From positions 31,029 to 95,028 of the forward strand of contig JBDRRS010000014.1 in assembly GCA_043825615.1 (NCBI GenBank): DNA of 64,000 nucleotides, given 5' to 3'. The notes under the pieces are model-generated. The model ran no database searches, was not told the DNA's origin, and saw only the letters and a list, made by a program, of their open reading frames with translations. How positions within the stretch are numbered: position 1 is the stretch's first letter; every line of letters begins with the position of its first letter. Origin of the DNA: a bacterium. GTDB taxonomy: Bacteria; CG03. Below, one piece after another: positions 44,216 through 62,399 of the stretch. The translations under genes were made by a program, and so were the position numbers.

Positions 44216-44247
44216 CTAGTCAATTCTACTTGCTTTATTAAAATCAC

Positions 44248-44427: not shown

Positions 44428-44428
44428 T

Positions 44429-47021: not shown

Positions 47022-47104
47022 CGGGAAACTTATATCCTTCACCGCCGTTAGAGGATTGACCTCTAATGGGGCATGGGCCTTTCGCTTCCACCTCCCGCGA
47101 GGAA

Positions 47105-47180
47105 AAAAAATTTCTGCAGGTCTCCGGGCTTTAACCGTTGCGGGGCAGCGGCCGGTTTTCACGGCGCTTTCCCTGCAAAA
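47105..47180 (-). promoter_or_regulatory. Compact cobalamin riboswitch-like element in the btuFCD leader, with a TTGACA-N18-TAAAGT promoter-like sequence just upstream (about 47181-47215)
   Basis: - strand: GCAGGGAAAGCGCCGTGAAAACCGGCCGCTGCCCCGCAACGGTTAAAGCCCGGAGACCTGC carries all the core blocks, including the B12 box AGCCCGGAGACCTGC. Confidence 0.55.
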
Positions 47181-47357
47181 ACACTTAACTTTACAAAAAA
47201 ATATTTTATTCTGTCAACGGGCGGGGAGGCCTCTGGGGGGGGTACCCCGCACCACCGGAAAGCCATCCGCCGGATAAACCCGTTGTGCTTGGCTGCAATG
47301 ATTAATATCCAAACAGACGGAGTGTTTACAAGAAAGGGCCTTTCGGGATTTTGCCTC

Positions 47358-47414
47358 TTGACAGGATTTTGTTTTCAAATTATAATATTACCAAAGCGGT
47401 AATTTTGGTAATTA
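47358..47414 (+). promoter_or_regulatory. Sigma70 consensus promoter (TTGACA-N17-TATAAT) followed by the inverted repeat ATTACCAAA-N8-TTTGGTAAT. Candidate Rrf2 operator.
   Basis: ttgaca 47358-47363 and tataat 47381-47386. Inverted-repeat arms 47387-47395 and 47404-47412. SD ggagg 47418-47422. ATG 47428. Confidence 0.5.
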
Positions 47415-47427: not shown

Positions 47428-47874
47428 ATGAAACTTTCTACGAAAGGGCGTTATGGAGCCAGAGCAATGCTGGAACTGGCGCTTAATTATGAAAAGGGTA
47501 CTATGCTGCTTCGGGACATTGCCCATAGACAGGAAATTTCGGAAAGTTATCTTGAACGAATGATGACCGCTTTGGTTTCTGCCGGTTTGGTAAGAAGTTT
47601 ACGCGGACAGCATGGAGGGTTTATTTTAGCAAAGCCGCCGGGCGAAATCAGGCTGAGTAAAATAATTCAGGTTGTGGAGGGTTCGCTTTCTCCGTCTCCG
47701 TGCGTTGACGACCCGAAGCTGTGTAAACGGGTTAATATCTGTGTTACCCGCGATATATGGAGGAGGTTAAAAGAAGCAATGGCAGATATTCTGGATTCAA
47801 TAACTTTGAAGGATATGGTGAATATGCAGAAGAATAAGTGCGCGGGATTAGATGAGCAAATGTATTATATTTAG
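47428..47874 (+). CDS. Rrf2-family transcriptional regulator (CymR/IscR-like)
   Basis: MKLSTKGRYGARAMLELAL...LRDIAHRQEISESYLERMMTAL is the Rrf2 wHTH. It sits upstream of cysK, as CymR does in Firmicutes. Confidence 0.75.
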   Translation: MKLSTKGRYGARAMLELALNYEKGTMLLRDIAHRQEISESYLERMMTALVSAGLVRSLRGQHGGFILAKPPGEIRLSKIIQVVEGSLSPSPCVDDPKLCKRVNICVTRDIWRRLKEAMADILDSITLKDMVNMQKNKCAGLDEQMYYI

Positions 47875-47976
47875 AAAAAAGAATGACGGAGATGGAGCCG
47901 CCGGCGGCGGGTGAAGAGCACAATCAGGGGCCCTATTGAGTCGAGCAGGCACGAATTAAGTATAGAAGGGGGAAGT

Positions 47977-48903
47977 ATGGCGAAAATAGCGGATAGCGTT
48001 CTTGGTTTGATTGGAAACACCCCGCTGGTCAGGTTAAGGAAAATAACTGCCGGCGCAGGAGCTGAGATTGTCGGGAAACTTGAATTTTTCAATCCCTGCG
48101 GGAGTGTGAAAGACCGTATCGGCGTGAGTATGATTAATGAAGCGGAAAAGCAGGGCTTACTAAAAAAAGGTTCCGTGATTGTCGAACCGACCAGCGGTAA
48201 CACCGGTATTGCGCTTGCTTTTGTGTGCGCGGTTAAGGGATACCGTTTGATTCTTACAATGCCGGATACGATGAGCATTGAGAGGAGAACGATGCTCAAG
48301 GCATTTGGCGCCGAAATAATTTTGACTCCCGGCAGTGAGGGAATGAAAGGGGCTATTGATAAGGCCGGAGAAATTACAAAGAAGAACAGCAAAGCATTTA
48401 TGCCCCAGCAGTTTAAAAATCCCGCCAATCCCGAAATCCACCGGAAAACCACTGCACTGGAAATCTGGAGGGACACGGACGGGAAGGCGGACATTCTTGT
48501 TTCAGGCGTGGGAACCGGCGGAACAATTACAGGGATAGCCGAAGTAATAAAAAAGAAAAAGCCGGAATTCAAAGTTATTGCCGTTGAACCGGCGGATTCA
48601 GCGGTTCTTTCCGGCGGCCCTGCGGGTCCGCACAAGATTCAGGGAATAGGCGCCGGTTTTATCCCGGATGTTTTGAACAGAGAAGTTATTGATGAAATAA
48701 TAACGGTTGAAAATGAAGATGCGATAGAAACCGCGAGGAAACTCGCAAAAGAAGAAGGGATATTTGCCGGAATTTCCTCCGGAGCGGCTGTTTATGCGGC
48801 AATAAAAATTGCCGGACGAAAGGAAAATAAGGGAAAACTGATTGTTGTGATTCTTCCCGATTTAGGAGACAGGTATTTATCGACGGAGGTGTTTAATGTT
48901 TAG
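47977..48903 (+). CDS. cysK: Cysteine synthase A (O-acetylserine sulfhydrylase)
   Basis: IGNTPLVRL, the PLP-lysine region NPCGSVKDR, and [10 protein letters not shown]. The longest ORF starts at 47911. The ATG at 47977 has SD gaaggggga. Confidence 0.85.
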
Positions 48904-49014
48904 AAGTAAAATTATCATGGCGAGATGGAACAGCTTATGGCTGATGCGATGCCCCGTATGGGGCCAAGCGACAGGGGATTACAGACGAGTGAGAAAGTAT
49001 AAAGGAGTATAAAA

Positions 49015-50223
49015 ATGGCGAAGACGATTTCCGAAATAAATGAAAAAATAAAGAAAGGTGAAGCGGTTGTATTAACTGCCGAGGAGATGACGGACTTTGT
49101 AAGTAAAAAAGGGGCAAAGACCGCAGCGAAGGAAGTGGACGTCGTAACAACAGGGACATTCGGCCCGATGTGTTCCAGCGGGATGTATCTTAATATAGGA
49201 CATTCCAAGCCGAAGATAAAACTGGGGGGAGGGTCCTGCACACTTAACGATGTTCCGGCTTATTGCGGTTTTGCCGCAGTAGATATTTATCTCGGATGCA
49301 CGCATCTGCCCGACGATGACCCGCGTAACAAGGTCTATCCGGGCGAATTCAAGTACGGCGGAGGTCATGTGATAGAGGATTTTGTCGCCGGCAAGGATAT
49401 CAAGCTTATTGCCGCGGCGTACGGCACTGATTGCTATCCAAGAAGGAAACTGGAGACATTGATAAACATCAAGGATGTAAATGAGGCTGTTCTTTTCAAT
49501 CCGCGGAACGTATACCAGAATTACAACGTGGCGGTCAATTTAAGCGACAAAATAATTTACACCTACATGGGCGCGCTGAAACCGAATCTGGGTAATGCAA
49601 ATTACTGCAGCGCCGGTCAGCTGTCGCCCCTGCTGAACGACCCTCTGTACAAAACTACAGGAATCGGAACAAAGATTTTTCTCGGCGGCGGCACCGGTTA
49701 TGTTGTGTGGCAGGGAACCCAGCACAACCCGACTGTCAAAAGAAGGGAAAACGGCGTCCCGGTATCTCCCGCAGGAACGCTTGCCGTTATCGGGGATTTG
49801 AAAGAAATGTCTTCCGAATGGCTTAAAGGAACAAGCATGTTCGGTTACGGTGCAACTCTTACGGTGGGAATAGGCATACCCATTCCGATAATCAACGAGG
49901 AAATTGCCGTATACGCGGCAGTTAAAGATGATGACATTTTTGCTCCGATTGTTGATTACAGCGAAGCGTATCCAAATGCAAAACCCGGGAATTTAGGCGA
50001 GGTTTCTTACGCCCGGTTGAAGAGCGGAAAGATTACTGTTCAGGGGAAGGATGTCGCAACAGCTCCTCTATCCAGTTATTCAAAAGCAAAAGAAATTGCG
50101 GAGATTTTAAAAGAGCGGATAAAAAAAGGGCAATTCTTATTGACTGAACAGGTTGCTTCTATTCCCGGACCTGACTCAGGACTGAAATTCAAACCGCTTA
50201 AGGAAAGACCGCTGGAGCAGTAA
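49015..50223 (+). CDS. DUF39 / COG1900 protein (homolog of the methanogen L-aspartate-semialdehyde sulfurtransferase for homocysteine biosynthesis)
   Basis: 402 aa. The conserved DUF39 core has multiple Cys (GPMCSSGMYLN, GGGSCTLNDVPAYCGF). A NIL-ferredoxin partner gene is immediately downstream. Confidence 0.65.
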   Translation: MAKTISEINEKIKKGEAVVLTAEEMTDFVSKKGAKTAAKEVDVVTTGTFGPMCSSGMYLNIGHSKPKIKLGGGSCTLNDVPAYCGFAAVDIYLGCTHLPDDDPRNKVYPGEFKYGGGHVIEDFVAGKDIKLIAAAYGTDCYPRRKLETLINIKDVNEAVLFNPRNVYQNYNVAVNLSDKIIYTYMGALKPNLGNANYCSAGQLSPLLNDPLYKTTGIGTKIFLGGGTGYVVWQGTQHNPTVKRRENGVPVSPAGTLAVIGDLKEMSSEWLKGTSMFGYGATLTVGIGIPIPIINEEIAVYAAVKDDDIFAPIVDYSEAYPNAKPGNLGEVSYARLKSGKITVQGKDVATAPLSSYSKAKEIAEILKERIKKGQFLLTEQVASIPGPDSGLKFKPLKERPLEQ

Positions 50224-50224
50224 A

Positions 50225-50632
50225 ATGGTTACCGAACGAATTGTATTGAAATTTCCGAAGCGTGTGGTTGACCAGCCTGTCATATGCCGTCTGGTAAAAG
50301 AATACGACCTTGAATTCAACATCCTCAAAGCTTATATTACACCGCAGGAAGAGGGTCTAATGGTTCTGGAACTGAAAGGAGAGGATGAAAACTACAGGAA
50401 AGGAATAGATTATTTGAAGGGCACAGGCGTGAAAGTTCAGTTGCTGAGCAGTGATATAATTCGCAATGACGCAAGATGTACCCATTGCGGTGTTTGTATA
50501 TCTGTATGTCCGACAGGCGCGCTGGTTATTGATTCTGTTACCCGCAAAGTTCGTTTCCATAATGAAAAATGTATTGCCTGCGAACTCTGTGTTCCCGCCT
50601 GTCCGGTGAGAGCAATGGAAGTAAGTTTTTAA
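50225..50632 (+). CDS. NIL-domain plus 2x[4Fe-4S] ferredoxin protein (MA1822-like partner of DUF39)
   Basis: 135 aa. Two CxxCxxCxxxCP motifs (CTHCGVCISVCP, CIACELCVPACP) after an N-terminal NIL-like domain. Start lies 2 nt after the DUF39 stop. Confidence 0.65.
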   Translation: MVTERIVLKFPKRVVDQPVICRLVKEYDLEFNILKAYITPQEEGLMVLELKGEDENYRKGIDYLKGTGVKVQLLSSDIIRNDARCTHCGVCISVCPTGALVIDSVTRKVRFHNEKCIACELCVPACPVRAMEVSF

Positions 50633-50638
50633 TTTAGA

Positions 50639-50947
50639 GTGGACATCCTGGAAAAAATAGCAGAACTTAAAAGTCAGGGGAAGAAAGGGGCATTGGCTAC
50701 AGTGGTTGACACGAAGGGTTCAACGCCCAGGAAAGCCGGCGCAAAGATGCTGGTTTTGGAAGACGGAACCTTTTCAGGTTCCATTTGCGGGGGTTGTGTC
50801 GAGGCGGAGGTTTATCAGGAGGCCTGCCGGGTATTGAAAGACGGAGAGCCGAAAGTATTAGAGTTCAAACTTAACGAGAGAGAAATGCCGGAAGAAAGCG
50901 GTTTGATTTGCGGAGGAATAATGAAAATATTTATTGAACCGATATGA
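50639..50947 (+). CDS. XdhC/CoxI N-terminal-domain-only protein
   Basis: 102 aa. GALATVVDTKGSTPRKAGAKMLV...GSICGGCVEAEV matches the XdhC_CoxI N-domain. GTG start. Confidence 0.5.
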   Translation: MDILEKIAELKSQGKKGALATVVDTKGSTPRKAGAKMLVLEDGTFSGSICGGCVEAEVYQEACRVLKDGEPKVLEFKLNEREMPEESGLICGGIMKIFIEPI

Positions 50948-51702
50948 GAGGGGGAAATAAGATGCTTAAAGACAAAATTCTTTTAGGGAAATCCGGAGAA
51001 AATGTTGCGGAGCTTGTAGAAAAGTTGAATTTTGCCGAGAAGGTTGAAAGGTCTCTTGAATTAATAGATGCTGCTTATAAGGAATTCGGCGACGGGCTCG
51101 TTGTGGCGAACAGTTTAGGAAAGGACTCAAGCGCAGTCTGGCATCTTGCAAAAAGAGTTAGTCCGAAAATAAAAGGATTTATTGTTACAACACGTTTTAA
51201 ACCGGACGAGACAAAACAGTTTATGAAAGAAGAAGTCGGCAGGTATTCCGAATTAAGGGTTTTTAAAAATGATGAAGAAGTTCCCGAAAAACTTTATGAA
51301 ACCGACCCTGACCGCTGCTGCGATATTCTAAAAGTCAAACCCACCCGTCAGGCAATCGAAGAGATGAATGTAACCTGCTGGGTCACAGGTCTCAGATGCA
51401 CCGAGGGAAGAACCAGAACGGACTTTAAAGAAGTTGAAGAGAGGGATAAGGGGCTTCTTAAACTTAACCCGATTCTCATCTGGTATGAGCGGGAAATATG
51501 GCAGTATCTGGCTCTGAACAGAGTTATTGTCAATCCTCTTTATGCGAAGGGCTACAGATCTCTTGGATGCGCTCCGTGCACAAAAATTACATCCGGCATA
51601 GATGAGCGTGCAGGCAGATGGGTTAATACAAGCAAGTGCGGGGGAGAATGCGGAATACACACTCAACCCCTGAAGACAAATGTGGACGGTGACGGGATTT
51701 GA
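50944..51702 (+). CDS. PAPS/APS reductase-family protein (CysH-like, PP-loop ATP-pyrophosphatase fold)
   Basis: PP-loop-like SLGKDSS and a C-terminal Cys cluster (RSLGCAPCT...CGGECG). 252 aa. Confidence 0.65.
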   Translation: MRGGNKMLKDKILLGKSGENVAELVEKLNFAEKVERSLELIDAAYKEFGDGLVVANSLGKDSSAVWHLAKRVSPKIKGFIVTTRFKPDETKQFMKEEVGRYSELRVFKNDEEVPEKLYETDPDRCCDILKVKPTRQAIEEMNVTCWVTGLRCTEGRTRTDFKEVEERDKGLLKLNPILIWYEREIWQYLALNRVIVNPLYAKGYRSLGCAPCTKITSGIDERAGRWVNTSKCGGECGIHTQPLKTNVDGDGI

Positions 51703-51708
51703 TGGTAA

Positions 51709-52677
51709 ATGGTGAAGTATAGTTTTCTTACATTGCTGGTAATCCTGTTTGCAATGAATATGGGCGGCAGCGGTATTGCGCCTTCTTTTGCGGCAAGTTA
51801 CGGCAGTAAAATAATTAAGAAGAAATTTGCCGTAATTCTATTTACAATATTTGTATTTCTGGGAGCGGTTACAGTCGGCAGAAATGTCGTTAAAACTTTA
51901 AGCAGCGGCATAATATCACCGGAATTTATTAATTTTGATGTTGCGTTAATCATAATTCTGTCTGCAACATTAACTCTCGCTCTGGCGAATTTCCTGAGGA
52001 TACCGGAATCCACAAGCATGGTAACAGTCGGAGCGATAGTAGGAACCGGTGTATTTTTCGGCAATGTCCATTTGAAACTTTTGTACCGGATGCTGTTGCT
52101 ATGGATTACTTTTCCGGTCGTATCATATTTTTTAACATACTGGCTGTATAAAATAGTCTATCCGCCTTCTAACAGGAATTTATGGATTTATGAAAAGTTC
52201 CTTATAAAAGAGAAAAATTTCAGAATATTCACCATAATTGCGAGCTGTTACGGCGCATTTGCCGTCGGAACGAATAATGTCGCCAATGCAATAGGGCCTC
52301 TGGTCGGCGCTGAACTTGTAACTCCTTCTATGGGATTATTGCTGGTTACTCCGTTTCTGGGGCTTGGAGGTCTTCTCTTTGGAAAGAGAACGATTGAAAC
52401 CTTCAGTAATGAAATTGTTCCTCTGGGAAATATTTCCGCGCCCTTGATTGTATTTGTTACCGGAACTCTGCTTATTTTAGCATCGGCTCTCGGCTTTCCT
52501 TATCCGTATGTGCAACTTACTGCATTGTCTATTTTAGCAATCAGCAGCGTCAAAAACGGATATAAACATACAATGCGCCAGAACGTGGTCAGGAAAATCT
52601 TCAAAATATGGGCCGTCACTCCTTTGTTTTCCGCAGGCCTGGCGTTTTTGCTTCTAACAATATTTTTCAGGAGATAG
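51709..52677 (+). CDS. PiT-family anion permease (phosphate/sulfate transporter, CysP-like)
   Basis: 322 aa with about 9 TM helices. The N-terminus NMGGSGIAPSFAASYGS and the internal repeat GTNNVANAIGPL are PHO4/PiT signatures. Confidence 0.65.
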   Translation: MVKYSFLTLLVILFAMNMGGSGIAPSFAASYGSKIIKKKFAVILFTIFVFLGAVTVGRNVVKTLSSGIISPEFINFDVALIIILSATLTLALANFLRIPESTSMVTVGAIVGTGVFFGNVHLKLLYRMLLLWITFPVVSYFLTYWLYKIVYPPSNRNLWIYEKFLIKEKNFRIFTIIASCYGAFAVGTNNVANAIGPLVGAELVTPSMGLLLVTPFLGLGGLLFGKRTIETFSNEIVPLGNISAPLIVFVTGTLLILASALGFPYPYVQLTALSILAISSVKNGYKHTMRQNVVRKIFKIWAVTPLFSAGLAFLLLTIFFRR

Positions 52678-52679
52678 AA

Positions 52680-53480
52680 GTGATATATTTAGAGAAAAAA
52701 CAGTTCAGCCGGATGATAGAACATTGTCAAAAAGAGTATCCTAAGGAGGCATGTGGAATTCTTGCCGGGAAAGCTTGTCCTGAGCGGGGCCGAAGGGATG
52801 AAAGGGTATCAAAGGTGTATAAAATGGTTAATACCTCGGAGAAACCTGAAATCTGTTATTTTATGGAACCTAAAGAGCAATTAAAAGTATTTAAAGAAAT
52901 GCGTCGGCTCGGTGTAGAGATGTTAGGAATATATCACTCTCATTCGGAGACTTTAGCCTATCCGTCAAAACGGGATTGCGAAATGGCATTCTATCCTGAA
53001 GCATCTTATGTGATCGTTTCGTTACAGGATTTTAATAAACCTGATGTGCGGGCTTTTAAAATTATGGAAGATAAAATTGATGAGGAACAAGTTGTGGTGA
53101 GAAAAAACATTCTTTTTGTCTGTGTAGAGAATTCATGCAGGAGCCAGATAGCAGAAGCGATAGTTAATAATCTTCACCGGCAGAAATTTGTCGCTTACAG
53201 CGCAGGCTCAAAGCCTTCCGGCGCCGTGAATCCGTTGGCAATAGAAGTAATGAAGGAAATAGGAATCGATATTTCCGGGCAAAAAAGCAAGGGCTTTGAT
53301 ACAGTCGGAGATATAGAATTTGACTATGTAATAACCATGGGCTGCGGTGATTCTTGCCCTGTTTATCCTGCAAAAGAGAGTTTTGACTGGCAGATAGATG
53401 ACCCGAAGAATAAACCAATAGAGTTTTTTCGAAAGGTGAGAGATGAGATTCAAAGAAAAATTCAGGAGTTGTTAAAATGA
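52680..53480 (+). CDS. Fusion protein: JAMM/MPN+ metalloprotease (Mec+/CysO-cleaving type) plus an LMW-PTP-family arsenate reductase (ArsC, thioredoxin-coupled type) domain
   Basis: JAMM motifs EACGIL ... HSHSETLAYPSKRD. The C-terminal half aligns with B. subtilis-type ArsC (FVCVENSCRSQIAEA, TMGCGDSCP, FFRKVRDEIQRKI). GTG start has SD aggaga 6 nt upstream. The longest ORF begins at 52608. Confidence 0.65.
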   Translation: MIYLEKKQFSRMIEHCQKEYPKEACGILAGKACPERGRRDERVSKVYKMVNTSEKPEICYFMEPKEQLKVFKEMRRLGVEMLGIYHSHSETLAYPSKRDCEMAFYPEASYVIVSLQDFNKPDVRAFKIMEDKIDEEQVVVRKNILFVCVENSCRSQIAEAIVNNLHRQKFVAYSAGSKPSGAVNPLAIEVMKEIGIDISGQKSKGFDTVGDIEFDYVITMGCGDSCPVYPAKESFDWQIDDPKNKPIEFFRKVRDEIQRKIQELLK

Positions 53481-54631
53481 ATTTTATTCTTTTAGGGATT
53501 AGTCATAAAACCGCTCCGGTAAAAGTGAGGGAGAGATACTCATTTTCTAAAAAGCGGCTTTCAGAGACTTTGATTAGATTATCCAGGAATAAAATGATAG
53601 ATGAAGTGGTGCTCCTTTGCACCTGCAATCGAACAGAAATATATGCAAACACACTTGCCCGCCGCGACTTGGCAGGCGGGGATTTTACAGATGCGGCGAA
53701 AAAATCTTTATACAGCGAATTACGCCGTGCCTGCCGGCAGGCAGGAACTACGAACTACCCCACGACTTCGCTTAGGGCAGGCGAATTACAATACTTTTAT
53801 TTCCTGCAAAACAAGGATGTGATCAAACATCTTTTCAGGGTTGGTGCAGGTCTTGATTCTCAGGTTATTGGAGAAAGCCAGATTCTGGGACAGGTGAAAA
53901 ATGCATATTTCCATGCAAAAGAACTGGGAACAACAGGGAAATATTTCTATAAGCTGTTTCAGAAAGCAATAGAAGCAGGCAAGATTGTACACAGGACAAC
54001 TAAAATATCTGAGGGGAATATTTCTATTGGTACTGTTGCATTGAGGATGGCTGAGAATTTATTGGGAACTTTGAATGGAAAGAAGATTTTGATAATTGGA
54101 ACAGGAAAAACCGGCGAATTAGCAGCTAAATATCTGGCAGATAGAGGAATATCCGGATCCTTTGTTGCTAATAGAACCCATGAAAAGGCAATAGAACTCG
54201 CAGCAAAAATTGGCGGCAGAGCAGTCGGATTTAATAATCTGAAAAATGAAATTAAAGATACAGACATCATTATCAGCGCCACAGCCAGTCCGCATTTGAT
54301 TTTGAAAAAAGAGATGATTAGAGAGATTATGAGTCTTCGCAGAAAACCTCTTTGTTTAATGGACCTGGCATTACCGCGTGATATAGACCCTGAAATAAAA
54401 TGTATTAATAATGTGAGTTTGTGCAATTTAGATGACTTTAATTTAATAATTGAAGAGAATTATAGAAAAAGAGTTCAAGAGGCAAAAAAAGCAGAAGAGA
54501 TTATAAAAGAAGAGGTGAAAAAATTTTGGAAATGTCTAAACGAACCACGAACAACCCCTCGACTTCGCTCGGGGCAGGCGAATTACGAACCACGGTTAGA
54601 ATCGGCACCCGTCCGAGCCGGCTTGCTTTAA
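53477..54631 (+). CDS. hemA: Glutamyl-tRNA reductase, with an in-frame repeat insertion and a repeat-derived C-terminus
   Basis: Active-site region VLLCTCNRTEIY, then HLFRVGAGLDSQVIGESQILGQ, and the NADPH-binding ILIIGTGKTGE. There is about 17 aa of extra sequence between the catalytic Cys region and the HLFRV block. Confidence 0.8.
   Translation: MNFILLGISHKTAPVKVRERYSFSKKRLSETLIRLSRNKMIDEVVLLCTCNRTEIYANTLARRDLAGGDFTDAAKKSLYSELRRACRQAGTTNYPTTSLRAGELQYFYFLQNKDVIKHLFRVGAGLDSQVIGESQILGQVKNAYFHAKELGTTGKYFYKLFQKAIEAGKIVHRTTKISEGNISIGTVALRMAENLLGTLNGKKILIIGTGKTGELAAKYLADRGISGSFVANRTHEKAIELAAKIGGRAVGFNNLKNEIKDTDIIISATASPHLILKKEMIREIMSLRRKPLCLMDLALPRDIDPEIKCINNVSLCNLDDFNLIIEENYRKRVQEAKKAEEIIKEEVKKFWKCLNEPRTTPRLRSGQANYEPRLESAPVRAGLL
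53745..53789 (+). repeat. Intragenic 45-bp repeat, copy 1 (inside hemA, in frame)
   Basis: gaactacgaactaccccacgacttcgcttagggcaggcgaattac. Flanked upstream by a second gcgaattac at 53716-53724. Confidence 0.45.
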
Positions 54632-55260
54632 AGCAGGCGGAGGAAGCAGCGGAGATGTTGAATGATTGTGAAATCAGGTTTGAGGTAAAAACATATAATA
54701 CTTCAGGAGATATGGATAAGACCACTCCGATTTCAGAAATTGACGGGTCTGATTTTTTTACGGACTTTCTTGAAAAAGCATTATTAAACGGTGAAATAGA
54801 TATAGCCGTGCATAGCGCTAAAGATTTACCTGATAAAATATCCGACGGACTGGTTATTGCTGCTGTAACCAGGTCAATAGACCCGTATGATGTGTTAATT
54901 TCCAAAAACAATTTAAGTTTAAGCGAACTTCCAAATGGCGCAAAAATCGCAACAAGCAGTATTCGGCGTAAAGAGCAGTTAAAAAAATACAGACCTGATT
55001 TTCAGATTCTGGATATTAGGGGCAATATTGAGGAACGTTTAGCAAAATTGGATAACAGTAACCTGGACGGCATTGTAATTGCCGCCGCCGGATTAATCCG
55101 TTTAGGTCTGGAAAACAGGATAACTCAAAAGATTCCTTTTGAAATTCTTGTGCCTCACCCTATGCAGGGAGCGCTGGCAATAGAGACACGTAAGGATAAT
55201 GAAGAAATGATTAACAGGGTGAAAAAACTGGACACAAGACATATTGAGAAGAAAAGATGA
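54526..55260 (+). CDS. hemC: Porphobilinogen deaminase (hydroxymethylbilane synthase)
   Basis: IGTRPSRLALKQAEE core, 244 aa. The N-terminal 20 aa are encoded by the repeat element. The start is ATG 54526 or 54532. It overlaps the hemA 3' end by about 100 bp in another frame. Confidence 0.8.
   Translation: MEMSKRTTNNPSTSLGAGELRTTVRIGTRPSRLALKQAEEAAEMLNDCEIRFEVKTYNTSGDMDKTTPISEIDGSDFFTDFLEKALLNGEIDIAVHSAKDLPDKISDGLVIAAVTRSIDPYDVLISKNNLSLSELPNGAKIATSSIRRKEQLKKYRPDFQILDIRGNIEERLAKLDNSNLDGIVIAAAGLIRLGLENRITQKIPFEILVPHPMQGALAIETRKDNEEMINRVKKLDTRHIEKKR
54542..54595 (+). repeat. Intragenic 45-bp repeat, copy 2 plus a partial third unit (spans the hemA 3' end and the hemC 5' end)
   Basis: gaaccacgaacaacccctcgacttcgctcggggcaggcgaattac followed by gaaccacgg. 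About 40/45 identical to copy 1 in the same orientation. Confidence 0.45.
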
Positions 55261-56633
55261 AAAAAGGTAAAGTTTATTTAATAGGAGCAGGCCCGGGTGA
55301 CCCGGGTTTGATTACCGTAAAGGGATTAGAGATTTTAAAACAGGCAGAAGTTGTAATTTATGATTATCTTGTGGATAAGACAATTTTGAAATATGCAAGT
55401 CCAACGGCAGAGTTGATATGCGCTGATGAATTAGATAGGGAAAGATTTAGCATAAATAAGATAATGGTGAAAAAAGCAAAAGCAGGAAAAAGAGTTGCGC
55501 GTTTGAAAAACGGGGACCCTTTTGTCTTTGGAAGGGCAAATGAAGAGATTGAAGCGCTGAGTAAAAACAGGATAGAATTTTCCGTGATTCCGGGAGTTAC
55601 TGCTGCAAATGCTGCCAGTTGTTTTAGCGGGATACCTTTAACAGCAAGAGGCGTTTCGTCAAATGTGGTATTTGCAACCGGTCATGAAGACCCTAAAAAA
55701 AATAAAGGTTTTATTAACTGGAAGAACATTGCTCAGGCTGATACCATTGTTTTATACATGGCAGTAGAAAACTTGCCTCAAATTACTCAAAAGTTGCTCG
55801 TATCAGGAAAGAAAATAAATACACCTGCAGCAGTTATTTCCGATGTGAGCAGGATTGGCCAGAAGATTGTTACAGGTGTTTTAAAAGATATTTCAAACAA
55901 GACAAAAGCAGAAAAAATATCTGCTCCTGCGATTGTAATTATCGGCGATGTTGTGAAAAAAGAAAGGAATTTTAACTGGTTCGGTAAAAACAGGAAGATA
56001 CTTTTTACAGGGCTTTCTTCGGAGAGGTTTTTTGAAAAAGGCATAATTTTTCATCTTCCCATGATTGAGATTAAACCTTTGAACGATTATAATGAGATGG
56101 ATAAATGGATTAAAAAGATAAATACTTTTGACTGGATTGTTTTTTCGAGCAGATTTGGAGCGCTTTATTTTTTCAGGAGATTATTAGGCCAGGGTTTTGA
56201 TACCCGTGTATTAAATGGAATAAAAATTGCGGCCATAGGAAATTCAACTGCTGGCAAATTAAGAGAATACGGCATCATTGCGGACATAATTCCGAAGCAG
56301 GAGTCGTCTTCCGGTCTGCTTGGGGAGTTGAGAAAATTAAACATTGCTGGTGCAAAGATTTTTCTGCCGCGCTCGGATATTGCTGATAAAGGTTTGACCG
56401 AAGGCTTAAAAAAGTTTGACGCTGTTGTTTATTCCTGTGTGGCTTACAGGAATGTTATGCCTGAAAATCTGCCGGACATGGACTTTGACTTTTTTGATGA
56501 GATTATATTCAGCAGTCCTTCAGCGGGAAGAAATCTTATAAAAAGATACGGAAAACCGCCGGAAAGAATCAGAATAAGAGCGATTGGTTCTGTGACCGGA
56601 AAGGAATTGAAAAAATGGGGTTTATCCGCTTAA
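55257..56633 (+). CDS. cobA: Uroporphyrinogen-III C-methyltransferase / uroporphyrinogen-III synthase fusion (CobA-HemD)
   Basis: The N-terminus VYLIGAGPGDPGLITVKG is the SAM-dependent tetrapyrrole methylase signature. The C-terminal 230 aa are HemD-like. Confidence 0.8.
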   Translation: MKKGKVYLIGAGPGDPGLITVKGLEILKQAEVVIYDYLVDKTILKYASPTAELICADELDRERFSINKIMVKKAKAGKRVARLKNGDPFVFGRANEEIEALSKNRIEFSVIPGVTAANAASCFSGIPLTARGVSSNVVFATGHEDPKKNKGFINWKNIAQADTIVLYMAVENLPQITQKLLVSGKKINTPAAVISDVSRIGQKIVTGVLKDISNKTKAEKISAPAIVIIGDVVKKERNFNWFGKNRKILFTGLSSERFFEKGIIFHLPMIEIKPLNDYNEMDKWIKKINTFDWIVFSSRFGALYFFRRLLGQGFDTRVLNGIKIAAIGNSTAGKLREYGIIADIIPKQESSSGLLGELRKLNIAGAKIFLPRSDIADKGLTEGLKKFDAVVYSCVAYRNVMPENLPDMDFDFFDEIIFSSPSAGRNLIKRYGKPPERIRIRAIGSVTGKELKKWGLSA

Positions 56634-57589
56634 GCCGTTTAAGAAGAAAAGAATCTTTACGGAAACTGGTTCAGGGCATCCGGATTTCTGTAAAAGATTT
56701 TGTTCTTCCTGTCTTTGTCCTTGAGGGGAAAAACAGGAAAGAGGAAATTTCCTCTATGCCCGGGGTCTTCAGGTTTTCCCCCGACAATTTAATAAAGGAA
56801 ATAGAAGAAGTGAAGAAATTGGGTATTATTGCAGTTCTTCTTTTTGGTGTCCCTGAAGAGAAAGATGAAAAAGGTTCTTCAGCTTTTGATAAAAATGGAA
56901 TTGTACAAAAGGCGGTTAAAAAAATAAGACAGGAATTCCCTGACATGGTATTAATAACCGATGTGTGCCTCTGCGGTTATACTTCCCATGGACATTGCGG
57001 CATAACAAAAATTAAAAGTTGCATTATTGACAATGATGCTACTTTGAAAATCCTGTCAAAAATTGCATTGTCGCACGCACAAGCAGGCGCTGATATTGTT
57101 GCTCCCTCGGCAATGATGGACGGACAGGTAACGACAATAAGAGAAACGCTGGATAAAAAGGGTTTCAAAGATGTTGCCATAATGGGATATTCCGCAAAAT
57201 ATTCTTCAGGGTTTTATGGCCCGTTCAGAGAAGCTGCGCAATCGTCACCTCATTTCGGAGACAGAAAAAGTTATCAGATGGATTATCATAATGTAAGGGA
57301 AGCTTTGAGAGAGGTGGAAGCAGATATAAAAGAGGGCGCTGATATTGTTATGGTAAAACCGGCTCTAACTTATTTGGATGTAATAAAGACAGTAAAGGAT
57401 AATTACGGGATACCTCTTGCAGCCTATAATGTGAGCGGAGAATACAGCATGGTGAAAGCCGCTTCTATGCAGGGTTGGCTTAATGAAAAAAAAGCGGTAT
57501 TGGAGATATTGACTTCGATTAAAAGAGCAGGCGCAGATATTATCATAACCTACTGGGCAAAGGATGCAGCAAAATGGCTAAGAAAATGA
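56615..57589 (+). CDS. hemB: Porphobilinogen synthase (delta-aminolevulinic acid dehydratase)
   Basis: Cys-rich zinc site DVCLCGYTSHGHCG and active-site Lys regions. 324 aa. Confidence 0.85.
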   Translation: MGFIRLSRLRRKESLRKLVQGIRISVKDFVLPVFVLEGKNRKEEISSMPGVFRFSPDNLIKEIEEVKKLGIIAVLLFGVPEEKDEKGSSAFDKNGIVQKAVKKIRQEFPDMVLITDVCLCGYTSHGHCGITKIKSCIIDNDATLKILSKIALSHAQAGADIVAPSAMMDGQVTTIRETLDKKGFKDVAIMGYSAKYSSGFYGPFREAAQSSPHFGDRKSYQMDYHNVREALREVEADIKEGADIVMVKPALTYLDVIKTVKDNYGIPLAAYNVSGEYSMVKAASMQGWLNEKKAVLEILTSIKRAGADIIITYWAKDAAKWLRK

Positions 57590-58896
57590 ATAAAAGACTA
57601 TTTAAAGAAGCGGAGAAGCACATACCGGGCGGAGTGAATTCTCCTGTAAGGGCGTTTAAAGCAGTCGGTGGAACCCCCTTGTTTATTAAAAGGGGAAAAG
57701 GTTCGAAAATTTATGATGTTAAAGGAAGAGAATATATTGATTATGTGATGTCATGGGGCGCATTGGTCTTAGGACATGGTCATCCTGAAGTAATCAGAAA
57801 AGTCAGAGCCGCCCTTGTAAACGGAACAAGTTTCGGCGCTCCTACGCAGATAGAAACGGAACTGGCAAAAGAGATTTGTAAAGCATATCCTTCAATTGAA
57901 AAGGTACGCCTGGTAAATTCAGGCACAGAGGCGTGCATGAGCGCTGTAAGGCTGGCAAGAGGTTATACGGGAAGAGCAAAAATTATTAAATTTTCCGGTT
58001 GTTATCACGGTCATGCTGATTATCTGTTGGTTCAGGCAGGTTCAGGCATGACAACATTTCGTTCAACGAGTTTGGGGGTGCCAAAAGATTTTATCAAGTA
58101 TACTTTTGTTCTGCCATATAATAATTTAGATGCAGTTGAGAAAACAGTAAAGAAGTATCACAAAGATATTGCCTGTATTATTATAGAACCGATTGCAGGG
58201 AACATGGGCGTTGTATTGCCGGAAGGGGATTTTCTGCAGGGTCTTCGTGAAATTTGCGACCGGTATAAAATAGTCCTTATTTTTGATGAGGTGATTACGG
58301 GCTTCAGAGTTGCTTATGGCGGGGCACAGGAAATTTATAGAGTAAAACCTGACATAACCTGTCTTGGAAAAATTATTGGCGGAGGATTGCCCATAGGAGC
58401 ATTTGGCGGGAATAAGGAAATTATGGATAATCTTTCTCCCGGGGGAGATGTATATCAGGCAGGCACATTATCAGGCAATCCTGTTGGTGTAACCGCCGGT
58501 CTTACAACATTAAAAATTCTTTCCACAAGAAAAGTATACGGTTTACTTGAAAAAAAAGCCGGACTTCTTTGCAAAGGGATTGAAGAAAATATAAACAAGA
58601 CAGGAGTAAAAGCCGTTATAAACAGGGCGGGTTCAATGTTTACAATATTTTTTACAAATGAGAAGGAAGTTTGCTATTATAAAACAGCGGCACGGTCAAA
58701 TACCGGACACTATGCACAGTTTTTTCATGAAATGCTGAAACAGGGGATTTATCTACCTCCGTCACAGTTTGAGTCCTGCTTTGTTTCTATTGCGCATACA
58801 GAAGCTGATATTAAAAAAACAATAAAAGCGTCTTTAATGGCATTTGAAAAATATAAGGTCGCCTCTTCGGCGACCTGCCGGGGAGGCAGGAGGTAA
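57574..58896 (+). CDS. hemL: Glutamate-1-semialdehyde 2,1-aminomutase
   Basis: Class III aminotransferase PLP fold. HemL N-terminus GGVNSPVRAF and the FDEVITGFR PLP region. Confidence 0.85.
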   Translation: MAKKMNKRLFKEAEKHIPGGVNSPVRAFKAVGGTPLFIKRGKGSKIYDVKGREYIDYVMSWGALVLGHGHPEVIRKVRAALVNGTSFGAPTQIETELAKEICKAYPSIEKVRLVNSGTEACMSAVRLARGYTGRAKIIKFSGCYHGHADYLLVQAGSGMTTFRSTSLGVPKDFIKYTFVLPYNNLDAVEKTVKKYHKDIACIIIEPIAGNMGVVLPEGDFLQGLREICDRYKIVLIFDEVITGFRVAYGGAQEIYRVKPDITCLGKIIGGGLPIGAFGGNKEIMDNLSPGGDVYQAGTLSGNPVGVTAGLTTLKILSTRKVYGLLEKKAGLLCKGIEENINKTGVKAVINRAGSMFTIFFTNEKEVCYYKTAARSNTGHYAQFFHEMLKQGIYLPPSQFESCFVSIAHTEADIKKTIKASLMAFEKYKVASSATCRGGRR

Positions 58897-58897
58897 A

Positions 58898-59752
58898 ATG
58901 GCGGAATATGACATTAAACAATTGAAAGCCGGCGGATTTATGAAACAGAAGGGGAAAGATTTATTCTCAGTCAGACTCCGCATTGTCGGAGGTTTCGTTA
59001 AAAGTGCGCAGCTTCCCAAATTGCAGAAAATCGCTGATAAATACGGACGCGGTTATATTCATCTCACCACCCGTCAGGGAATTGAAATTCCCCATGTGCA
59101 TTTTAAGGATTTTGAGAATGTGAAAAAAGAATTAAAAGAAGCAGGTCTGGGAATTGGCGCCTGCGGCCCTCGCGTCAGGACAATAACCGCGTGTCAGGGA
59201 AAGGCCTGTTCCCACGGACTCATTGACAGCCAGGAGCTTGCCGGGCATATTGATAAAATATTTTTCGGCAGCGCCGGGCTGCCCCATAAATTTAAAATAG
59301 GTATTACAGGTTGCCCGAATGCCTGTATTAAGCCGCAGGAAAATGACCTTGGCATTATGGGAATAATAAAAAAAGGTTTTGATAAGAATCTGTGTAATTA
59401 TTGCGGATTGTGCGCGGAAGTCTGTCCTGTGAAAGCAATAAAAGTTAGTGAGGGAAACATTGAATACAATGAAAAAAAATGTATAGGCTGCGGGGAGTGT
59501 GTTTTTTCCTGTCCTACTTGTGCATGGAGAAAAGATATGGAAGGTTACAGGATATTTGCAGGCGGCAAGATGGGCAAGTTTCCTAAACTGGGTTTTCCGC
59601 TTTTTGATTTTTACAGGAATTTAGACGAATTGTTAAATATCATAGAAAGACTGTTTGAGTTTTATAAGGAACAGGGAATAAAAGGAGAAAGATTCGGAGA
59701 CACAATAGACCGGCTGGGAATAGAGTATGTTAAAAATAAGTTGAGTGTTTGA
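58898..59752 (+). CDS. Small nitrite/sulfite-reductase-like sirohaem-[4Fe-4S] protein with an extra ferredoxin-type 2x[4Fe-4S] insert
   Basis: NiR/SiR ferredoxin-like half-domain plus [16 protein letters not shown]...GCPNAC (sirohaem-coupled cluster) and [12 protein letters not shown] / [14 protein letters not shown] aggagg lies before the ATG at 58898. The longest ORF begins at 58844. Confidence 0.55.
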
Positions 59753-59763
59753 GGAGGAAAACA

Positions 59764-60906
59764 ATGGCAATAAAGATTTTAATTAACGGTAAAGAAGAGG
59801 AATTGGAGAAAGAGATGGAAGTTCTGGAGGTGCTTAAGAAAAAAAATATCCGGCCGGAAGTGGTAACCGTAGAGTTGAATAAAAAGATAATAAATAGTAA
59901 AGATTATCAGTCAACCCTGCTTAAACAGGGTGATGTGCTTGAGTTTGTCTTTTTTATGGGAGGAGGCCGGAGCAAAATGCCCGATGAAGTTGCCGGTAAT
60001 GTTCTGGAATTGGTAGGAAACACGCCTACGGTAAGATTGAACAGGATTGTTGACAAAGAGTGCGCGGAAGTTTATGCCAAGCTGGAATCTTTTAATCCGG
60101 GCGGCAGTGTCAAAGACCGTATTTGCCTTTCTATGATTGAAGATGCGGAAAAGAAAGGAAAATTGAAGCCCGGCGCAATAATCGTTGAACCGACATCGGG
60201 AAATACAGGAATAGGCCTGGCAATGGTGTGCGCGGTCAAGGGGTATAAATGCATTCTGACAATGCCGGAATCAATGAGTCTTGAACGGATATTTATATTG
60301 AAATCTTACGGAGCAGAGGTTGTTTTAACGCCGTCTGCCGAAGGAATGCAGGGAGCGATAAAAAAAGCGGAAGGGATTATTAAAAAGACCCGGAACAGTT
60401 TTATGCCGCAGCAATTTAATAATCCGGCTAATCCTGAAGTACACCGCAGAATCACTGCAAAAGAAATACTGGCGGTTCTCGACGGCAAACTGGACGCTTT
60501 TGTTGCCGGCGTAGGAACAGGCGGAACGATTACGGGAGTAGGCGAAATCCTTAAAAAGAAAAACCCGGATATAAAGATAATAGCAGTTGAACCTTTAACT
60601 TCAGCAGTGCTGTCCGGTAAAAGCGCCGGTCCGCATAAAATTCAGGGGATTGGCGCAGGTTTTATTCCGGAGGTTCTAAACCGCAAAATAATTGATAAAA
60701 TCATTACAGTGGGTGACAAGCAGGCTTTTGATATTGCGAGGCGGCTGGCCAGAGAAGAAGGTTTGTTAGTAGGTATTTCTTCCGGGGCGGCGGTCTTTGC
60801 CGCGCTTAAGACGGCAAAGGATTTAGGGGCGGGGAAAAGAGTGATTGTCATCCTGCCTGATACGGGAGAAAGATATTTCAGTATGGAGCAGTATTTTACT
60901 GCCTGA
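59764..60906 (+). CDS. Fusion: ThiS/MoaD/CysO-like sulfur-carrier domain (ending GGG) plus cysteine synthase (CysM/CysK-type PLP enzyme)
   Basis: The N-terminal 70 aa form a beta-grasp-like domain [12 protein letters not shown]...[17 protein letters not shown]. The linker [10 protein letters not shown] comes next, then the full OASS fold ([27 protein letters not shown]). This fold is about 65-70 percent identical to cysK at 47977. SD gaggagg. Confidence 0.65.
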
Positions 60907-60920
60907 TAGGGAGTAAAGAA

Positions 60921-61166
60921 ATGAATGATATGAAGATTGACGGGAAGCTCGACCTGCGGGGTGTAATTTGTCCGATGAATTTTGTTAAAACAAAACTCAA
61001 ACTTGAAGAGATGCAGCCGGGGCAAATTCTTGAAGTGATACTTGATGACGGTGAGCCGGTTAGAAATGTTCCGCGCAGTGTAAAAGAAGAAGGGCATAAG
61101 ATTGTCAAAGTGGAAAGACTTGAGAATGCCTTCAAATTGCTGATTAAAAAATCTACGGAGGTTTGA
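60921..61166 (+). CDS. tusA: TusA-family sulfurtransferase
   Basis: 81 aa. CPxP motif LRGVICPMNFVKTK at the N-terminus of the TusA two-layer fold. Confidence 0.65.
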   Translation: MNDMKIDGKLDLRGVICPMNFVKTKLKLEEMQPGQILEVILDDGEPVRNVPRSVKEEGHKIVKVERLENAFKLLIKKSTEV

Positions 61167-62399
61167 ATGTCTTTTGTTAGAGGACTAAAATGCAGAGAAT
61201 GCGGCAGAAAATATCCTAAAGAACCGATTTATGTGTGCGAGTATTGTTTCGGCCCGTTGGAAGTGGATTATGATTATTCAGGAATAAAGAAAAAGCTAAA
61301 CAGAGATTTGATTGTTTCACGCCCCAAAAATCTCTGGCGTTATCGTGAATTGCTGCCTATCGACGGCGACCCGGTGGTTGGTCTGCAATCAGGTTTTACA
61401 CCGCTGATTAAAGCGGATAATTTAGCAAAAAAATTAGGAGTGAAGGAGTTATATGTCAAAGATGATTCGGTGTGTCATTCGACTCTTTCTTTCAAAGATA
61501 GAGTGGTCTCGGTTGCTATCTCTAAAGCAAAAGAATTCGGCTTTGATACTGTTGCCTGCGCTTCCACGGGGAATTTGGCAAATGCCGTCTCCGCGCAGGC
61601 CGCTCAGGCAGGCATGAAATGTTTTGTTTTCATACCTGCGGACCTGGAATCAGGAAAAGTAATTGCTTCGCTGATATATGCCCCGAGGGTTATTGCAGTC
61701 GAGGGAAATTACGATGAAGTGAACCGTCTTTGCACGGAAGTTGCAAATAAATACAAATGGGCATTTGTTAATATCAATATACGGCCTTATTATGCCGAGG
61801 GCTCAAAAACTTATGTTTATGAAATTGTTGAACAGCTTGGCTGGCGCGCGCCGCGCCACATTATTGTTCCGGTTGCGGGAGGGTCTTTGCTTTCCAAAAT
61901 CTGGAAAGGCTTGCAGGAGTTTCAAAAATTAGGGCTGATTGACGAATTTAACACAAAAATTTATGCTGCCCAGGCGCATGGCTGCTCTCCTGTGGTTACG
62001 GCGATTAAAGAGAACAGCGAAATTATCAAGCCGGTAAAACCAAAGACAATTGCCAAATCTTTAGCCATCGGGAATCCTGCGGACGGATACTATGCTTTTA
62101 AGACGGTTATGGAAAGCGGCGGCTGGGGGGAGGAGGCAACCGATGCAGAAATAGTTGAAGGGATAAAACTGCTTGCTTTAACCGAGGGAATATTCACTGA
62201 AACAGCAGGAGGCGTTACTGTTGCCGTAGCCAAAAAGCTTATTGCTCAGGGGAGAATTCCGAAGGATGAGTCAATAGTTATTTCGATTACAGGCAACGGG
62301 TTAAAGACACAGGAGGCGGTAGCGGGCAAAACAGGGGAACCGGTAAAGATAAAAGCGAATATAGATTCTTTTGAAGAAACAGTCCAGGTAAAAGGATGA
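61167..62399 (+). CDS. thrC: Threonine synthase-family PLP enzyme with an N-terminal zinc ribbon
   Basis: CRECG...CEYCFGPLEV zinc ribbon. PLP-lysine context SFKDRVV. 410 aa. Confidence 0.7.
   Translation: MSFVRGLKCRECGRKYPKEPIYVCEYCFGPLEVDYDYSGIKKKLNRDLIVSRPKNLWRYRELLPIDGDPVVGLQSGFTPLIKADNLAKKLGVKELYVKDDSVCHSTLSFKDRVVSVAISKAKEFGFDTVACASTGNLANAVSAQAAQAGMKCFVFIPADLESGKVIASLIYAPRVIAVEGNYDEVNRLCTEVANKYKWAFVNINIRPYYAEGSKTYVYEIVEQLGWRAPRHIIVPVAGGSLLSKIWKGLQEFQKLGLIDEFNTKIYAAQAHGCSPVVTAIKENSEIIKPVKPKTIAKSLAIGNPADGYYAFKTVMESGGWGEEATDAEIVEGIKLLALTEGIFTETAGGVTVAVAKKLIAQGRIPKDESIVISITGNGLKTQEAVAGKTGEPVKIKANIDSFEETVQVKG

Follow-up and report, generated by a model that had tools for sequence, protein, structure and literature searches.

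An Rrf2-headed gene run in a CG03 bacterium, a probable supraoperon from oxidised sulfur to cysteine and homocysteine with carriers fused to enzymes

How does oxidised sulfur reach cysteine and homocysteine in an uncultivated, Omnitrophota-like bacterium of the CG03 lineage, and do the genes that may serve this end belong to one unit? These questions are raised by a stretch of 64,000 nucleotides (the window; contig JBDRRS010000014.1 of assembly GCA_043825615.1, positions 31,029 to 95,028), in which 17 co-directional and tightly packed genes fill positions 47428-62399, as judged from the list of open reading frames (ORFs), their translations, and Pfam and NCBIfam scans. We propose that this region is probably the first 15 kb of a supraoperon of at least 23 kb, headed by the gene of an Rrf2-family regulator, that leads from oxidised sulfur to cysteine and homocysteine. 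A first-pass annotation, made from the sequence alone, had described 15 co-directional genes with short or overlapping junctions; the packing and the direction hold, and the count rises to 17. Every component that it listed is found at its place by Pfam and NCBIfam, although it left unnamed the Rrf2 regulator and a protein made of an XdhC_CoxI domain only. The two unusual fusions to which it pointed, JAMM~ArsC and ThiS joined to a pyridoxal phosphate (PLP) enzyme, are real by their Pfam and NCBIfam domains (a tilde marks a fusion throughout). Its overall view also stands, namely a single long sulfur unit in which plain O-acetylserine sulfhydrylase (OASS), a DUF39/NIL-ferredoxin pair, and a thiocarboxylate-type route by carrier proteins stand together and in which genes for sulfite reduction and sirohaem synthesis are embedded.

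The run is closely packed. At 14 of its 16 junctions the genes overlap or lie no more than 14 nt apart, and the only two larger gaps, of about 105-111 nt, lie 3' of the Rrf2 gene and 3' of cysK. Ahead of the first gene stands the best sigma-70-type promoter of the region (47358-47386, plus strand; TTGACA-17 nt-TATAAT, 12 of 12 consensus matches), and no plus-strand intergenic terminator-like site was found in the 17-gene run. This first gene (47428-47874, plus strand) encodes the Rrf2-family regulator (PF02082, E=1e-39), which is CymR/IscR-like and carries a C-x6-C-x5-C motif; the NCBIfam CymR and IscR models score 132 and 124 bits, both under their cut-offs. Position 62399 is not the end of the run, as the gene of a PAS sensor histidine kinase begins 5 nt downstream in the same direction.

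To what extent is this arrangement shared? Gene contexts were taken from 91 fetched loci (given L numbers), which were locally re-annotated with phmmer. A search of contigs with the ThiS~CysK fusion mostly gave plain CysK loci, since it is the CysK half that holds the conserved peptides, and these loci were useful after re-annotation. Our data show a recurring core, Rrf2-cysH-(sat)-PiT-JAMM(~ArsC)-(hemA, hemC, cobA~hemD, hemB, hemL)-ThiS~CysK, sulfite reductase (SiR) plus TusA in either order-ThrC-like-MoaD-like-ThiF-NIL, whose order was seen in Omnitrophota-like contigs and in Saganbacteria (L012). Rrf2 heads the core wherever upstream sequence is available, and it is the first detected gene of the cluster in L003, L084, and L091. 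Partial or shorter versions occur in Actinomycetota (L010), Desulfuromonadales (L019), and Spirochaetes (L082). The arrangement is not due to chance, as other phyla show this gene order too. Its parts vary: the closest other species (L091, with a fusion 80% identical) has sat and lacks the hem genes, which are also absent from L090, and L002 and L003 have the hem genes and lack the ArsC domain and the DUF39 module. Judged from these contexts, the version in the window is a mosaic of the conserved core and additions. Added are a cysK-DUF39-NIL-ferredoxin-XdhC_N module, which follows Rrf2, and a two-component system, which precedes the gene of the activating enzyme; the sirohaem branch is not found in all relatives.

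We also considered that separate sulfur and haem operons merely lie side by side in the locus, made co-directional by strand bias and without joint function, and we hold this to be highly improbable. GC skew is indeed positive across the whole region, two intergenic gaps exceed 100 nt, and modules come and go as described above, with the two-component system inserted only here. Such a patchwork, however, sits poorly with the close junctions, with one consensus promoter and no intergenic terminator found on the plus strand, and with a core order conserved across phyla in which neighbours repeatedly fuse (SiR~TusA, ThiS~CysK, MoaD~ThiF, and MoaD~NIL).

If the unit is a carrier route, what activates the carriers? 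Pfam scans of selected long ORFs across the window revealed no ThiF/MoeB protein, ATP sulfurylase, or adenosine 5'-phosphosulfate (APS) kinase, in agreement with the first-pass annotation, which had taken carrier activation to be open. That point is no longer open, given a Logan contig with the same sequence that extends past the window end (L001), on which an E1-like activating enzyme (E1) is encoded about 2.8 kb downstream on the same strand. It is a MoaD-like~ThiF fusion (L001:15180-16277) of 365 residues, made of a 92-residue ubiquitin-like (Ubl) domain and ThiF, and NCBIfam groups its ThiF part with MoeB, UbaA, and MoeZ. Of the MoeZ model, it covers the adenylation part only (positions 4-275 of 392), and this E1 hence has no rhodanese domain. 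After the ThrC-like gene, the order on L001 is PAS histidine kinase (62405-64000 on the plus strand before it runs off the window; 722 residues with PAS, HisKA, and HATPase domains on L001), response regulator, MoaD-like~ThiF, and a NIL-only gene; these genes share one strand and either overlap or are separated by short gaps. The histidine kinase hence stands between the ThrC-like and E1 genes, whereas in relatives the E1 gene lies directly 3' of the ThrC-like gene.

Beyond the NIL-only gene, the same strand continues with a ThiI-like PP-loop protein, a 78-residue ThiS, NadA, a 65-residue ThiS (both ThiS proteins ending in GG), NifU, and MnmA (L001:16574-20406); this suggests that the carriers and the E1 are also used for tRNA thiolation or for the insertion of sulfur into cofactors. 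NIL-only proteins of 80-100 residues are encoded near E1 or carrier genes in many loci (L001:16270-16524, 84 residues; L002, L003, L006, L012, L015, L019, L039, L090, and L091), and in L019 a NIL domain is fused to the MoaD-like carrier. NIL domains go with both homocysteine routes of the operon, that is, with DUF39/NIL-ferredoxin and with ThrC-like/MoaD/E1.

The first of the carriers is built into an enzyme. A ThiS-like carrier domain (59764-59967, ending in MGGG), a linker of about 12 residues, and a CysK-type PLP enzyme form one protein (59764-60906, plus strand). The earlier proposal of a ThiS-like beta-grasp domain is borne out. The N-terminal 68 residues match PF02597 (E=2e-10) and score 65 bits with the TIGR01683 thiS model (cut-off 37), and they match solved ThiS proteins (2k5p/3cwi, E=7e-10; 1tyg_B, E=6e-6). 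The AlphaFold 2 (AF2) model shows a beta-grasp fold with beta-beta-alpha-beta-beta-beta order at a block-mean predicted local distance difference test (pLDDT) score of 72-92. Residues 63-78, which hold the GGG and the linker, have a pLDDT below 50, and the junction is disordered. Designer pentatricopeptide-repeat proteins were the top Protein Data Bank matches to this domain; they were set aside as repeat-summed artefacts (i-Evalue of about 8 per stretch), and it is the single-stretch ThiS matches that count.

The enzyme half had been read earlier as CysM and turns out to be of CysK type. It scores 460 bits with the TIGR01139 cysK model, above the cut-off, and 302 and 286 bits with cysM models, under their cut-offs; it is 63% identical to the product of the upstream cysK1, and among solved structures it is closest, in sequence as in fold, to classical OASS-A enzymes. 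A Foldseek search with the whole AF2 model gave only CysK folds among the 50 matches listed and did not inform on the N-terminal domain. The fusion family is large: the best 120 homologues all have ThiS and PALP domains and span 375-402 residues, except for two 514-residue variants with an added DUF454. Those with names belong to Omnitrophota, WS2, Caldisericota, and "Unc6", and they are annotated only as cysteine synthase A. Our search of the literature found no description of the ThiS~CysK fusion family. The three-part DUF454~ThiS~CysK proteins are found at L091:6301-7845 and as P0004, and L090 has a free-standing DUF454 gene two genes upstream of the fusion.

The GGG is kept in 119 of these 120 members and is invariant in a 42-sequence alignment, and the residue after it and the length of the linker vary. 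Where ThiS is a separate gene, the orthologues end in GGG plus 1-3 residues (YAF, K, M, IN, or FN); in our protein the GGG is internal and followed by the linker and CysK. Might the fused ThiS never be released, and not be a sulfur carrier at all? CysK2 would then use free sulfide, the beta-grasp domain would serve in docking or regulation (e.g., by recruiting SiR, TusA, or E1), and JAMM would serve the MoaD-type carrier only. We regard this as unlikely, though it has points in its favour: hidden Markov model (HMM), sequence, and fold all mark the PLP domain as an ordinary CysK, the glycine run might be a mere flexible hinge, and for Ubl domains joined to ThiF a role other than that of a carrier has been proposed (Iyer et al. 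2006, PMC1779556). The unfused orthologues, however, have the classical form of a carrier precursor, the linker differs in sequence and length from member to member behind an invariant GGG, and ThiS and CysK are adjacent across phyla in the company of JAMM and E1.

The second carrier, of MoaD type, displays a similar pattern. It keeps Pro-Ala/Ser-x-Ala-Gly-Gly, in which the Gly-Gly is invariant in all 31 copies, and what follows may be 0-33 residues, an entire ThiF (10 loci, that of the window among them), or NIL (1 locus, L019). A Gly-Gly that is always kept, with an extension of any kind after it, would be expected if the extension is removed post-translationally, and it fits trimming by a JAMM peptidase. 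Such a protein is encoded at 52680-53480 (plus strand), where a JAMM/Mec-like metallopeptidase (to about 53099) is joined to an ArsC-type LMWPc domain (53100-53480; PF14464 and PF01451). The JAMM half carries the active-site Glu (EACG) and the HxHx7Sx2D zinc motif, HSHSETLAYPSKRD; it matches PF14464 with E=3e-25 and the NCBIfam desampylase model with 88 bits, under the cut-off of 130. In the MetO system, carrier extensions are trimmed by a JAMM peptidase, according to the GapMind 2026 preprint, and for MoaX, a MoaD-MoaE fusion, the glycine must be accessible, according to PMC3227635.

Which enzyme might the MoaD-type carrier serve? The ThrC-like gene (61167-62399, plus strand; PF00291 and a NinF zinc ribbon) encodes a PLP enzyme with an N-terminal CxxC...CxxC zinc ribbon. 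Solved ThrC proteins align only from residue 52-57, leaving about 56 extra N-terminal residues, and the ribbon is kept in 16 of 17 ThrC-like orthologues, whereas solved threonine synthases lack it. In all 15 loci with downstream sequence, the ThrC-like gene has a MoaD-like gene no more than 3 kb away, and ThiF lies within 4 kb in 14 of them; the JAMM gene is in the same cluster as the ThrC-like, carrier, and E1 genes. By gene arrangement and by published description, the ThrC-like gene fits a candidate MetM, a thiocarboxylate-dependent homocysteine synthase. The first-pass annotation was right that a ThrC-like gene is present and had left it unassigned; the zinc ribbon and the neighbouring MoaD-like gene are what now fit it to MetM.

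A different account of these genes is that the ThiS domain is a carrier for the thiamin thiazole (or for another cofactor or tRNA thiolation), placed here because cysteine is the ultimate donor, and that the ThrC-like protein is a plain threonine synthase. Links between ThiS and cysteine synthase were interpreted in this way in 2006 (Iyer et al., PMC1779556), the N-terminal domain exceeds the TIGR01683 cut-off just as the ThrC-like protein exceeds that of NCBIfam thrC, and the ThiI-like PP-loop protein, MnmA, NifU, and two more ThiS genes lie downstream. Yet neither the window nor L001 holds thiG, thiH, thiC, or thiE, and the ribbon and the constant MoaD-like neighbour are unlike a plain threonine synthase. 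NCBIfam has no MetM model, and MetM is routinely misannotated as threonine synthase (GapMind 2026 preprint). In our judgement, the thiazole account is quite unlikely.

The genes that could supply the reduced sulfur are those of CysH, a PiT permease, SiR, and TusA. CysH (50944-51702, plus strand) is an assimilatory reductase of APS or 3'-phosphoadenosine 5'-phosphosulfate (PAPS), of the iron-sulfur (APS) type (PF01507; NF002537, 166 bits against a cut-off of 154). Its sequence holds CC...CxxC and a C-terminal ECGIH, and we take CC...CxxC with ECG[LI]H to be the motifs of iron-sulfur APS reductases. The PiT-family permease (51709-52677, plus strand; PF01384) is a probable sulfate importer, as had been thought possible before: its sole NCBIfam match is SulfPermCysPBac ("sulfate permease"; 267 bits, under the cut-off of 400), and in relatives its gene is always 3' of cysH or sat. 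The sulfite reductase (58898-59752, plus strand) is a small sirohaem-type enzyme of 284 residues with an inserted 2x[4Fe-4S] ferredoxin (PF03460, E=9e-21; PF01077, E=1e-30; Fer4), and among solved structures it comes closest to 7np8, an F420-dependent sulfite reductase, with whose C-terminal catalytic half it aligns over 262 residues, including GCPNxC (E=2e-45). TusA, a sulfur-relay protein of the TusA/SirA family, follows at 60921-61166 (plus strand; PF01206, E=1e-24). SiR~TusA fusions in L008, L012, and L084 support the TusA relay raised in the first-pass annotation and the 2006 prediction for SirA (PMC1779556), by which TusA may pass on reduced sulfur where the E1 lacks a rhodanese domain.

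ATP sulfurylase (Sat) is the missing piece. In L084, L085, and L091, a Sat with PUA_2 and ATP-sulfurylase domains is encoded between cysH and PiT; here the two genes are separated by 6 nt (51702-51709), which leaves no remnant, and a tblastn search with the Sat proteins of L091 and L084 against the window and L001 (71 kb) gave no match with E<4. By comparison with these relatives, Sat appears to be lost from its usual slot, and either the APS that CysH needs is made by an enzyme encoded elsewhere or the pathway starts from another sulfur compound.

From the gene content and order, their conservation, the domains, the catalytic motifs, the Gly-Gly pattern, and the site of the E1 gene, we infer a pathway whose chemical steps, cleavage, and pairing of carriers with enzymes we propose at a probability of about 0.6. 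Sulfate would be imported by the PiT permease and converted to APS by an ATP sulfurylase encoded elsewhere, CysH would reduce APS to sulfite, and the small SiR, which resembles the C-terminal half of the F420-dependent enzyme, would reduce sulfite to sulfide with sirohaem from the embedded hemA-L-B-C/cobA-hemD branch. Sulfide, possibly by way of TusA, would be loaded on the two Ubl carriers once the downstream E1 has adenylated their C-terminal Gly-Gly. The thiocarboxylate of the ThiS-type carrier would be used by the fused CysK-type enzyme to form cysteine, and that of the MoaD-type carrier by the ThrC-like (MetM-type) enzyme to convert O-phosphohomoserine to homocysteine. JAMM would cut after the Gly-Gly, which would free the carriers from CysK and ThiF, and it would also free the amino acid from a carrier-amino-acid adduct. 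Finally, cysK1 and DUF39/NIL-ferredoxin would add parallel routes that use free sulfide.

Several observations weigh against this pathway. The context loci were reached through CysK similarity, so that adjacency to CysK is partly built in. The fused PLP domain is a classical CysK whose closest solved relatives, the OASS-A enzymes, use free sulfide, and M. tuberculosis CysM is absent from its top 60 matches; that the domain does not belong to the mycobacterial CysM family lowers, without cancelling, the likelihood of a CysO/CysM-like mechanism. No ATP sulfurylase gene is present within the 71 kb, and in the closest relatives such a gene stands 3' of cysH and 5' of PiT; cysE, homoserine kinase, and COG2122 were not seen in the window. 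Iyer et al. 2006 moreover argued that Ubl domains fused to ThiF may act differently from a free carrier (PMC1779556).

A stronger form of the pathway can be offered only tentatively, and we would put it at somewhat below even odds. Both carriers would be made only as pro-proteins (ThiS~CysK and MoaD~E1), JAMM would be their obligatory maturase, and a CysK-type OASS would take a protein thiocarboxylate as its donor. If true, such maturation of pro-carriers would be a bacterial counterpart of ubiquitin-fusion precursors, which are cut by deubiquitinases.

The parallel routes are encoded at the start of the run. Free-standing cysK1 (47980-48903, plus strand) encodes OASS-A (TIGR01139 cysK, 480 bits against a cut-off of 351); its ORF opens at a GTG (47911), and the likely start is the ATG at 47980. 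The DUF39/HcyBio homocysteine-biosynthesis protein follows (49015-50223, plus strand; PF01837, E=6e-155 over its full length), and 1 nt later comes its partner, a NIL domain with a 2x[4Fe-4S] ferredoxin (50225-50632, plus strand; PF09383 and Fer4). No COG2122/ApbE-like protein was recognised among the scanned window proteins. A 102-residue protein with only the N-terminal domain of XdhC_CoxI (50639-50947, plus strand; PF02625, E=3e-27) is encoded between the NIL-ferredoxin and cysH. We considered it as a stand-in for COG2122 and rejected this, since the contexts of its homologues of about 100 residues concern molybdenum-hydroxylase maturation (Dehalococcoidales) or are unrelated, with no link to DUF39.

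The embedded sirohaem branch occupies 53477-58896 on the plus strand, and we found no description of such an embedded branch in the literature searched. Its hemA (53477-54631), encoding glutamyl-tRNA reductase, lacks the dimerisation domain (PF05201 and PF01488 only) and carries a 45-nt repeat insert; the hemA relatives that we checked are likewise short, with ORFs of about 320-360 residues. The product of hemC (54532-55260), porphobilinogen deaminase, consists of domains 1-2 only (PF01379 only): it aligns to residues 6-221 of the 312-residue 4mlq and then ends, without the C-terminal domain 3, which we take to be the domain with the dipyrromethane-binding cysteine. Downstream are a cobA~hemD fusion for uroporphyrinogen-III methyltransferase and synthase (55257-56633; PF00590 and PF02602; NF004790, 276 bits), hemB for 5-aminolevulinate dehydratase (56615-57589; PF00490, E=3e-150), and hemL for glutamate-1-semialdehyde aminomutase (57574-58896; PF00202, E=1e-74).

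The HemC truncation is shared by all nine cluster-embedded homologues (window, L002, L003, L007, L008, L009, L071, L084, and L085), and many of the closest representatives at 50% identity span 212-239 residues or end at the same point; the literature search returned no paper on a truncated HemC. In L084, an ArsC-like domain directly follows the truncated HemC. The two copies of the 45-nt repeat (53745-53789 and 54542-54586) are 89% identical, and their 20-nt core has a chance expectation of 0.01. One copy lies in frame in the N-terminal domain of hemA, where it adds about 19 residues (GTTNYPTTSLRAGELQ), and the other lies within the hemA/hemC overlap and is read in two frames. The repeat looks like a small repeat element tolerated in coding sequence.

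The ArsC half of the JAMM~ArsC protein aligns with the arsenate reductases 3t38 and 2l17 and has the CX5R motif (CVENSCRS) and the redox cysteines (GCGDSC); NCBIfam ArsC models score 92-105 bits, under their cut-offs. By alignment, it is a good candidate for an arsenate reductase of the low-molecular-weight phosphatase type. The fusion occurs in about 32 protein clusters, and we found no description of it in the literature searched. Related ArsC-like modules are also found as separate proteins, at the end of HemC (L084), or joined to PhoU; one such PhoU fusion, with an LMWPc relative about 60% identical, ends a pstSCAB phosphate-transporter operon (L086:7796-8845). These occurrences suggest that the ArsC-like domain travels with oxyanion importers and that it may protect against arsenate entering through oxyanion transporters, and JAMM~ArsC is probably a fusion of neighbouring genes. 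The idea that the domain replaces a rhodanese or domain 3 of HemC was not supported: L002 and L003 lack the domain and have the same truncated HemC, and the domain is also found with phosphate transporters.

Upstream, the boundary of the sulfur run is a divergent cobalamin riboswitch (47098-47213, minus strand; Rfam gathering scan, 49 bits, E=2.5e-9), which heads a btuF/fecCD/ABC-ATPase/TonB-receptor operon (42158-46990). It was the sole match of the Rfam gathering scan across the whole window, in which no S-adenosylmethionine (SAM) riboswitch was found.

How does this operon compare with known systems? The first-pass annotation knew of no described operon of this kind. A neighbourhood class with ThiS/MoaD, JAB, an E1 without rhodanese, SirA/TusA, PAPS reductase, and sulfite reductase was, however, catalogued in 2006 (Iyer et al., Table 1 row 4e, PMC1779556), in a work that also lists Ubl~ThiF fusions and predicts that SirA stands in for rhodanese. 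Our locus shares with that predicted operon the carrier, JAB/JAMM, E1 without rhodanese, SirA/TusA, PAPS-reductase family member, and SiR, and the same proposed logic of passing sulfur from sulfate or sulfite to a carrier. It differs in that ATP sulfurylase, APS kinase, the ABC transporter, and MetY are absent, with PiT, CysK, and the ThrC-like protein in their places, in that the carriers are fused to CysK and ThiF, and in that a full sirohaem branch and the DUF39 module are embedded.

The biochemical basis reportedly came in 2011 with the HcyS/HcyD/HcyF/Sir/MetY pathway of Wolinella succinogenes, described by Krishnamoorthy and Begley, in which JAMM is said to remove a carrier extension, the E1 lacks rhodanese, a clustered SiR supplies sulfide, and a PLP enzyme uses the thiocarboxylate. 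The extension of HcyS is reportedly a single alanine, and MetY is said to act on O-acetylhomoserine. In our locus, by comparison, the extension is a whole enzyme, and the PLP enzymes are of CysK type and ThrC type. The carrier-dependent MetY of Wolinella is also cited in PMC8191291.

In M. tuberculosis, the CysO/CysM/Mec+/MoeZR system has a carrier thiocarboxylate that attacks an aminoacrylate on an enzyme of cysteine-synthase fold, after which JAMM releases cysteine (PMC3227635). Here the PLP enzyme is of CysK type, unlike the O-phosphoserine-specific CysM, the carrier is of ThiS type and fused, and the E1 has no rhodanese domain. In Streptomyces albulus, MetM/MetO/Mec/MoeZ convert O-phosphohomoserine to homocysteine (Hasebe et al. 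2024), as summarised in the GapMind 2026 preprint, which reports a SAM riboswitch upstream of metM, probably no defining trait of the route, and lists MoeZ as the carrier-sulfur ligase. As far as that summary goes, our locus resembles it in gene arrangement, with a threonine-synthase homologue beside a small carrier, a JAMM protein that would mature the carrier, and an E1; it differs by an E1 without rhodanese, the presence of TusA, and the lack of an Rfam SAM riboswitch. The DUF39/NIL-ferredoxin homocysteine pathway is known from methanogens, Desulfovibrio, and Dehalococcoides (PMC5764234); the adjacency of the two genes, 1 nt apart, is the same here, whereas no COG2122 partner was recognised in the window and the XdhC_CoxI-only protein that follows has no such conserved link elsewhere.

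Collectively, the operon is a richer variant of a known pathway type (Mycobacterium, Wolinella, and Streptomyces) and not a new kind, and the logic of the pathway is already established in these organisms. In the literature searched, we found no description of CysK-type and MetM-type enzymes that each have their own carrier in one operon, and a specialist, who would see the logic immediately, might be surprised that the carriers are joined to entire enzymes and that a CysK is used. The fusions ThiS~CysK, MoaD~ThiF, MoaD~NIL, and SiR~TusA hint at the partners between which sulfur is handed over, and the locus offers a clean system for JAMM-dependent carrier maturation. If our reading of the operon as a carrier-dependent route to cysteine and homocysteine is true, hundreds of metagenome proteins of Omnitrophota and nearby candidate phyla, at present annotated only as "cysteine synthase A" or "threonine synthase", would belong to carrier routes, and predictions of amino acid auxotrophy in uncultivated groups would change.

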